DNA of 64,000 nt. Source: Isurus oxyrinchus (lineage: Eukaryota). Positions within the stretch are counted from its first letter, which is position 1. Each line of letters opens with the position of its first letter. The stretch covers positions 310,001 to 374,000 of the forward strand of contig JANJGN010000502.1 in the NCBI GenBank assembly GCA_026770705.1, in the 5' to 3' direction. Under the pieces are notes generated by a model, which did no database searches, was not told the origin of the DNA, and saw nothing but the letters and a program-made list of their open reading frames with translations. Below, piece by piece: positions 9,408 through 11,132 of the stretch. Made by a program: the position numbers and the translations under genes.

Positions 9408-9453
9408 ATGGGATTTGTGCTGTGCCTTTGCTTCTTCTTGGCTTACTTCACCT
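9408..9453 (+). CDS. IGHV: VH leader exon (MGFVLCLCFFLAYFT)
   Basis: ATG at 9408, hydrophobic signal peptide, phase-1 donor GTAAGT at 9454. Confidence 0.92.
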
Positions 9454-9579
9454 GTAAGTACCCCGACTGTATAAGTGGTACAACAGAAGTCTGCTTCTTT
9501 TCTGATATCGCGCTGCTATTTCCATTCACTAATTTGATTGTTTTTTTAATGTAATTACATTTTTTCCATTCGCTGACAG

Positions 9580-9880
9580 ATGTCCAATCCGCCATCGTGC
9601 TGACCCAGCCGGCTTCAGAGACCGCTAAGCCTGGAGATTCTCGCAAACTGTCCTGTTCGGTGAGCGGGTTCAGTCTGGACTGCTACTATGTGAACTGGGT
9701 TAAACAAGTTCCTGGGAAAGGGCTGAGTGGCTCCTTGCTTACAGAAAACCCTCAGATACCACGTATTACGCGCCTGGAGTCGAAGGTCGAATCATCCCAT
9801 CAAGAACTTCGTCCACAGCTTACATTGAGATCAAAAATCTGAGACCCGAAGACACCGTGAGGTATTACTGTGCAGGAGGC
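9580..9880 (+). pseudogene. IGHV: VH exon with frameshift in FR2
   Basis: Acceptor CAG at 9577-9579. Reads [49 protein letters not shown]/(E)[58 protein letters not shown] lacks one G of CTG GAG TGG. Confidence 0.95.
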
Positions 9881-9919
9881 CACAGCGACCTGAACAAGCC
9901 CAGAGCTCGTACAGAAACC
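9881..9919 (+). promoter_or_regulatory. VH 23-RSS
   Basis: CACAGCG + 23 nt + ACAGAAACC. Confidence 0.95.
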
Positions 9920-10272
9920 GCAGAGGAATAATTGCAGTGAATCATAGGTCAATGTTAGCTCAAAATAGGTTAAGAGATGTGTTTGAACCTCGATTGAAAA
10001 GTTACATTTTCCAAAGCAATAAAGTGGCGAAGAATAAAAACAAAATGTTGACTAACTCTGTATATTAAAGAGCATAGTTACCGCTTAGAATGTGCACAAC
10101 TGATGACTAGGAGCAAATTGAAATATTGACAAATTATTACGTGAATGGGGATAATTTTAGCTCAAGGTTCTGCTCCTGATTAAAACTCTTGAATGAATTG
10201 TAATCAAAATCTGCAAATCTTCTGCTGACTGAAAGGTTTTATTTCTTATAGCAACAATCAGTGAGTGAGAGC

Positions 10273-10352
10273 AGTATCTGTGCTGGTTCGTGTCACTGTG
10301 GTACTACAGTGGGTCACGGTGCTATGTATAGTGAACTCCTCATACAAATACC
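10273..10352 (+). other. DH1 segment (coding 10301-10314, GTACTACAGTGGGT) with 5' 12-RSS and 3' 22-RSS
   Basis: AGTATCTGT-12-CACTGTG [D] CACGGTG-22-ACAAATACC. Confidence 0.92.
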
Positions 10353-10660
10353 CCAGAGAGGGACTTTGATCAAAGCTGCGATCAGTATCACAGCAGGAAA
10401 GTCAAAGAAAATAAAATGACCAACAATAAGGGTTTTAAGGATTTACGAAAAAATGTATAAAAGTCTCCGAATTTACTAATTTTGATTGTCTTGCTAAATA
10501 GGGGCACAGTTGTTAAAGGCGTATTTCGATCCGCTTTATAAACATAATGAAGAGTTCTAACTGAAATATCACTGTGATGTATTCCTAGAGTATTCAGAAT
10601 CAGGTTTCTCAGACCGCTGTGGATTTGAATCTCTGTATTTCACATTTAACAGTCCGCCGC

Positions 10661-10727
10661 AGTTTCTGACATGGTGCGTCTCACAGTGATGCTGGATGGC
10701 ACAGTCGTTACTGTTAATGCAAAAACC
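10661..10727 (+). other. DH2 segment (coding 10689-10699, ATGCTGGATGG) with 12-RSS on both sides
   Basis: AGTTTCTGA-12-CACAGTG [D] CACAGTC-12-GCAAAAACC. Confidence 0.92.
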
Positions 10728-11045
10728 TCGTCGGGGCAAATTGATTGCATTTCAGTCGATGCATTTTTTTTTACAATACAACGATATTAAACAAACTCCT
10801 ATCTGTGCCTGGAGCTCCCCCACTGACAAGAGGTGCTAAAGTGTTAATTATTAAATCAGTGGTTGCTGATTTCAATGCATGATCATCAGATACTCTGTGA
10901 ATTACAAATAAAACAGTTTAATTTATAAAGTTTTAAAAATATTTCGCAATTTTACATTTTTGATAAAGTCAATCATGATTTTACTTTGCCTCTCGGCTCG
11001 TAACATTTAAATTAATATTGAATTTCTCCCCTTGTGTGCAGAACT

Positions 11046-11084
11046 GGTTATTGTGTGACCCAGATCAGCGAATGTAACACAGTG
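11046..11084 (-). promoter_or_regulatory. JH 23-RSS
   Basis: GGTTATTGT + 23 nt + CACAGTG. Confidence 0.92.
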
Positions 11085-11132
11085 ACTATATGGATTACTG
11101 GGGCCAAGGAACCATGGTGACGGTGACTGCAG
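11085..11132 (+). CDS. IGHJ: JH segment (YMDYWGQGTMVTVTA)
   Basis: WGQG motif; phase-1 donor GTAAGG at 11133. Confidence 0.96.

Follow-up and report, generated by a model that had tools for sequence, protein, structure and literature searches.

IgM miniclusters with an IgW-like VH segment in Isurus oxyrinchus: a likely old germline mosaic related to horn shark lambda1113

Organisation of the IgH minicluster in the window

The DNA analysed, referred to here as the window, is a stretch of 64,000 nt from Isurus oxyrinchus (GCA_026770705.1, contig JANJGN010000502.1, positions 310,001-374,000, forward strand). It includes a single complete IgH minicluster on the + strand, in which the order of the elements is leader, VH, D1, D2, JH, Cmu1-4, secretory tail and TM:

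9408..9453, +, leader exon, reading MGFVLCLCFFLAYFT; GT donor at 9454, splice 9453>9580 in public run X1
9580..9880, +, VH exon, IgW-like, lambda1113-type; one G missing after 9724 (frameshift)
9881..9919, +, 23-RSS of V
9920..10272, +, V-D1 spacer; z 0.8 against IgW (no signal), z 3.3 against canonical IgM (weak)
10273..10352, +, 12-RSS, D1 (10301-10314) and 22-RSS
10661..10727, +, 12-RSS, D2 (10689-10699) and 12-RSS
11046..11132, +, 23-RSS and JH (11085-11132) of IgM type; J 89% identical to canonical IgM J, 74% to IgW J
16860..20880, no strand assigned, insertion of ~4 kb in the J-C intron: inverted pair of GIY-YIG-bearing retroelement copies
21206..21505, +, Cmu1 exon, open
22445..22756, +, Cmu2 exon, in-frame TAG at 22705-22707
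26353..26657, +, Cmu3 exon, 1-nt deletion near 26478
27131..27522, +, Cmu4 exon plus secretory tail
32712..32839, +, IgM TM1 exon; TM2 not located

The recombination signals follow the order V-23, 12-D1-22, 12-D2-12, 23-J, which is the standard layout of the elasmobranch IgM minicluster. In the VH exon, the FR2 motif ends in (E)WLL and FR3 is short. The leader, FR2 and FR3 motifs quoted in the initial annotation, and all the elements that it placed, were found again at the same positions, and the bracketed E of its FR2 motif, which implied a frameshift, corresponds to the G missing after 9724.

The constant region is of IgM type. Cmu1-4 are 75, 71, 72/86 (in two frames) and 88% identical to the domains of Heterodontus IgM (P0033), CH1 is only 36% identical to that of Squalus IgW, and in a Cmu1-2 tree the window copy falls in shark IgM with support of 95/93. 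Where an IgW cluster has Comega exons and IgW-type D and J segments, the window has C exons of IgM type and D segments numbering two, not three.

The two retroelement copies in the J-C intron are 94% identical and ~1.8 kb each, and the insertion is missing from an intact cluster (L091). The pair is presumably Penelope-like. Six tRNA-like genes (Ser, Thr, SeC, Leu, Gln and Thr, at 36866, 46683, 50503, 51691, 56831 and 59296, respectively) lie 3' of the cluster inside the duplicated unit, and some of them may be SINEs. A 65-bp tandem repeat of 5.9 copies occupies 48936-49320.

The window cluster is a pseudogene of the lambda1113-type IgM family described below. It carries a frameshift in V, a stop in Cmu2 and a frameshift in Cmu3, and so lacks the open V and C exons of a functional IgM gene; the broken C region had been missed in the initial annotation. 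The one-G deletion in V is common to eight of the 30 loci from a V search of this genome (window included), and six of these eight copies, i.e. the window and five of its seven sister copies, also have the Cmu2 stop. Both lesions are therefore real, and a sequencing error was ruled out as the cause of the V frameshift. The 1-nt deletion in Cmu3 is private to the window (0/7 sister copies) and hence could be an assembly error. The eight frameshifted copies are located on separate small contigs (C502, C523, C506, C544, C358, C342, C336 and C132), and the mixed distribution of their common lesions suggests that they still exchanged sequence once dead.

The cluster family in this genome and in other sharks

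A protein search of the assembly with the window-type V revealed 47 matches, of which 36 are uninterrupted at 88-100% identity, supplying the intact paralogues that the initial annotation had proposed to look for, and 11 are broken. A Cmu1 of the window type was found 6.6-11.7 kb downstream on the same strand for all 47 V copies. As two further Cmu1 of this type lack a paired V, the total is 47-49 assembled clusters, 14 family members being on one contig (C38). The V-less Cmu regions of the family type (L127-L129 at C26:5907549 and L130 at C100:1668538) have no V within 20 kb upstream, and the one at C26:5907549 is an older, decayed copy. A second type of Cmu1, with ~61 exons, and 63 full-length V matches on the same contigs represent canonical IgM. 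The assembly further includes five true IgW clusters, all on contig C88; they have three D segments, and their V share 80-91% identity with a Carcharodon protein, which makes a lamniform host likely. Several contigs carry identical copies, which suggests that haplotypes were left unpurged, and the counts are thus those of assembled copies. Over the stretches compared (to ~48 kb), colinearity of the window with contig C523 is 98%; with the flanks of an intact cluster it is 84-91%, which points to expansion of the family via large duplications.

Recombination signals were scanned at the 30 loci of the V search. The full standard 23/12-22/12-12/23 layout was seen in 26 loci and an inverted layout in none; in the other four at least one signal was missing at the scan cut-off or within the stretch covered. 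The pN/pS values in the CDRs were 0.082/0.098 for the family (19 distinct V) and 0.156/0.263 for canonical V (23 distinct V), but both samples are the nearest matches to a query and hence biased, and do not demonstrate a distinct CDR selection regime of the family.

Apparent germline joining of D1 to D2 was observed in both IgM types (L133/L059 at C20:76721539 and L061 at C26:28167955), and an apparent D1-D2 joint (10308>10692) occurs also in one public run, X9. Between family clusters on contigs C38, C42, C100 and C26 there are IgNAR-like C exons (L105, L124; best shark match 4q97). According to PMC12227049, the isotypes do not intermingle, and the IgM, IgW and IgNAR clusters are linked near TCR alpha/delta. 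At C242:584701 (L097, L123), a series of TCR-type J segments is preceded, ~5.5 kb upstream, by a divergent VH of canonical type that has a 23-RSS.

The initial annotation had raised a relationship to the monotypic second VH family of the horn shark, and this relationship is now documented. According to passages of the original report, lambda1113 (GenBank Z11776) is a single horn shark cluster that constitutes VH family II; its V is ~61% identical to the main horn shark VH family, with 3 nt more in CDR2 and 6 nt fewer in FR3, its CH1 is that of IgM, and its D1-D2 spacer is inverted (Hinds-Frey et al. 1993, PMC2191167). Comparison of the window V with the lambda1113 V printed in Fig. 5 of that paper gave 46 differences over 288 nt (~84% identity, counted by eye and not machine-aligned, one base being illegible), which is above the >70% nucleotide identity in V that its passages use to delimit a VH family. 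Both indels, one additional codon in CDR2 and two codons fewer in FR3 relative to canonical V, are present in the alignment of window-type V. The D1 core and JH are similar, both V are linked to Cmu, and lambda1113 is also rearranged and expressed, as stated in the passages of PMC2191167. The D1 letters called lambda1113-specific in 1993 were dropped as a marker, as they occur in canonical D1 of this genome too. The cluster organisation is different: lambda1113 is single-copy with a V23-12D12-23D12-23J arrangement, whereas the order here is the standard V23-12D22-12D12-23J and 47 copies are assembled. Having neither the inverted spacer nor the single-copy state, the window is assigned to the lambda1113 V family only, and not to its cluster type.

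In catshark, the gene model scyTo_0014239 has 82% identity with the family V, and scyTo_0014240 has 81% identity with the window Cmu1. The two models are numbered consecutively and agree in the length of their longest contig, and V-Cmu linkage in that species rests on the locus tags. Given the matches in horn shark, catshark and this genome, the lineage spans all three.

Expression was assessed using public runs. These consist of contigs, not of reads from this animal; their source organisms are coded A and B, and their RNA nature is a guess. In four runs guessed to be RNA (X1-X4), exons are covered and most intron bins are empty. The leader-V splice is seen in X1 and X2, and a V-J joint in X3. 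In one of the four, X4, record 25 (536 nt) includes V (with four differences), 36 junction letters, J and Cmu1 in one contig, probably a V-Cmu transcript of the kind that had been proposed as a check. Thus, the family is probably expressed, as judged by a VDJ-Cmu1 contig from a run that is probably RNA.

Discordance between V and the D-J-C region

The V of an intact paralogue shares 64% identity with the V of Squalus IgW (P0007), 67% with Carcharodon P0005 and ~65% with the five IgW V of this genome, but only 49% at the amino acid level with a canonical IgM V. The source of P0005 (XP_041031595.1) names it 'immunoglobulin mu heavy chain-like', but the protein has a C region that resembles Squalus IgW. 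At the nucleotide level, the family V exon is 71% identical to IgW V and 64% to canonical IgM V. The greater likeness to IgW, which had been noted in the initial annotation, is thereby measured; the latter value is below 70%, and the V falls outside the canonical VH group (family I type). In a search of the PDB with the V, the 60 matches listed were all antibodies of mammalian or engineered origin.

Three protein V trees were built, one of 42 rows and two of subsets of 26 and 28 rows, obtained by omitting near-duplicates, a single partial row and a number of long rows. The family V is outside the canonical shark IgM VH group in all three. It forms a starred clade with the catshark V (100/98) and groups with the IgW V of this genome, unstarred, with support of 83-92/84-87; family V, IgW V and tetrapod VH make up one starred group. 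In AU tests, nesting of the family V with particular canonical V was rejected (p-AU 5e-6 and 8e-4). The tests did not reject a sister position of the family V to the canonical IgM V as a whole (p 0.37 when outgroups were left out, 0.18 when they were included), a single IgW V clade that excludes the family V (p 0.31), or a clade of the Cmu regions that accompany canonical V (p 0.052 on Cmu1-2 and 0.41 on four domains). The V trees thus do not prove an IgW donor of the family V. Older VH trees presumably grouped the second VH family of the horn shark with IgW/IgX V, and the IgW kinship of lambda1113 may already be in print. The term 'IgX' occurs 0 times in PMC2191167, and its passages draw no link to IgW. 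No statement of lambda1113 as IgW-related or expanded was found in passages of the literature, among which those of PMC5192425, PMC2435157 and bioRxiv 2022.06.22.497154 do not address a lambda1113-type lineage; table S1 of PMC12227049 may list clusters of this kind.

A gap of two residues in FR3 is common to the family V and seven of eight rows from IgW-type clusters or proteins, the Squalus row having a gap of one residue. In the V alignment it is absent from all canonical IgM (0/8), tetrapod VH (0/3) and outgroup (0/3) rows, and hence looks derived.

A stronger argument than the trees for an IgW-derived V is the comparison of individual segments, made with three clusters per group and shuffle z-scores. 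The noncoding D1-D2 and D2-J spacers of the family align with those of canonical IgM (68%, z 20 and 63%, z 13, respectively), while against IgW clusters the family spacers gave z of -0.5 to 1.5. Together with Cmu identities of 71-88% to P0033, this bears out the initial assignment of D1, D2, JH and the C exons to IgM. The promoter and leader intron do not align with canonical IgM (z 0.7 and -0.1), and the promoter, leader and leader intron have no clear homology to IgW (z 2.0, 3.1 and 1.4); the leader is 60% identical to both IgW and IgM leaders. The switch from IgW-like to IgM-like sequence is therefore located between V and D1. With no clear IgW homology in the promoter, leader and leader intron, and with a V-D1 spacer that has no alignment to IgW and a weak one to IgM, the mapping proposed in the initial annotation yielded no base-level breakpoint: the join is too old to map.

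Compared with the canonical elasmobranch IgM minicluster (horn shark VH family I, lambda1403 type), the family has in common the V-D1-D2-J-Cmu1-4-sec-TM organisation, the RSS order and alignable D-J spacers, and differs in V (~49% amino acid, 64% nucleotide identity) and in its unalignable promoter and leader intron. With the elasmobranch IgW cluster it shares the V exon (64-67% amino acid identity), the FR2 motif and the short FR3; the IgW clusters of this genome are distinguished by three D segments, another J, Comega exons and unalignable spacers.

A second IgW-like V family was observed among the canonical IgM clusters (L096 at G000:C26:31130184 and ~10 copies on C26, C140, C151, C152 and C210). 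It consists of a V, a single 19-nt D with 12-type signals and an IgM-type J, and its promoter aligns with that of the lambda1113-type family (z 8.8). In the four copies checked, no C exon was found over the first 17-35 kb downstream, and TCR-like V follow.

Origin of the family

The mostly intact IgM minicluster family with lambda1113-type V likely goes back to one old germline join of an IgW-lineage V to IgM D1-D2-J-Cmu, a reading to which we assign a probability of about 0.68. An IgW-lineage V module would have been joined once, in the germline, to an IgM D1-D2-J-Cmu backbone. The position of the join would be the V-D1 spacer, its age would predate the split of horn shark, catshark and this lineage, and the family would later have expanded by large segmental duplications. 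Drift in place would leave the 5' noncoding DNA as alignable as the D-J spacers; the discordance of V with D-J-C points instead to an old germline mosaic with its junction in the V-D1 spacer. The donor could be IgW itself or a lost IgW-like lineage; the Cmu trees settle neither donor nor direction. Intact members would act as ordinary shark IgM clusters, with V, D1, D2 and J joined by RAG within the cluster. RAG-mediated V-D-J joining under the 12/23 rule is an established mechanism, the signals for which are seen here, and the VDJ exon would then be spliced to Cmu1, as in the one public contig.

An alternative that we regard as unlikely, though well ahead of the others, involves no swap: two VH lineages would have been present on IgM clusters since before the V pools of IgM and IgW separated, the family keeping the ancestral V state while D-J-Cmu was homogenised later. 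The grouping of tetrapod VH with IgW V and family V in the same starred group is in its favour, since part of the IgW likeness may then be ancestral, and it accords with the AU tests (unrejected alternatives at p 0.18-0.37) and with the lack of IgW homology 5' of the V exon. The common promoter (z 8.8) of the second IgW-like V family, which has IgM-type D-J, likewise points to an old separate lineage. However, the FR3 gap, which IgW V and the family have and which tetrapod VH and the outgroups lack, looks derived and argues against this alternative, and homogenisation of D-J-Cmu that spares the V module would itself be inter-cluster exchange. Between a germline swap and an ancient shared lineage, both offered in the initial annotation, the segment discordance and the FR3 indel favour the mosaic, while the AU tests leave the alternatives unrejected.

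Much less probable is divergence of the V in place from canonical IgM V after escape from gene correction, as proposed for lambda1113 via D1-D2 inversion in passages of PMC2191167. The canonical D, J and C and the weak alignment of the V-D1 spacer to canonical IgM (z 3.3) would suit such a history. The standard layout in 26/30 loci and the inverted one in 0/30 indicate that the divergent V exists without the inversion, and nesting with specific canonical V is rejected; together these results largely refute divergence in place. An assembly mis-join or a recent one-off IgW/IgM recombinant, to which the small size of the window contig (436 kb) among near-identical copies might point, is refuted by the same layout in 47/47 copies and by contigs from two runs of other studies, X9 and X11, that bridge V into the V-D1 spacer; with a V only 71% identical to IgW V of this genome, the event is not recent. 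Of the chimera by recombination between V and D1 that was originally put forward, the location of the change stands, but not its singularity, as the window is one dead member of a 47-copy family.

Under the preferred reading of an old germline join, the family invites comparison with the somatic inter-cluster switching of the nurse shark, in which IgW VDJ is expressed with Cmu (passages reviewed in PMC4279169). An IgW-type V is found on an IgM constant region in both cases, but in the nurse shark a rearranged VDJ is moved somatically, whereas here the arrangement is germline and unrearranged, with D and J of IgM type. Quite tentatively, the family might represent a second ancient IgM subclass of galeomorphs that arose by germline transfer of V from IgW to IgM, being single-copy in horn shark and ~45% of the assembled IgM clusters here, its nearly fixed CDR1 and CDR2, the same in both, encoding a conserved innate-like specificity.

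Three points appear to be new: the family has expanded to nearly half of the IgM clusters assembled, its layout is not inverted, and the segment comparison is suggestive of an old germline mosaic. The window gene itself is dead and ordinary, and it is the family behind it that matters, modestly. What was taken in 1993 for a lone horn shark oddity now looks like an old lineage that occurs in at least three sharks and amounts here to 47-49 assembled clusters beside ~61 canonical ones, and the occurrence of the divergent V without a D1-D2 inversion argues against the 1993 idea that inversion caused the divergence. If the mosaic reading is true, the family would preserve in the germline an exchange of V between clusters of different isotypes, as an inherited counterpart to the somatic switching of the nurse shark.
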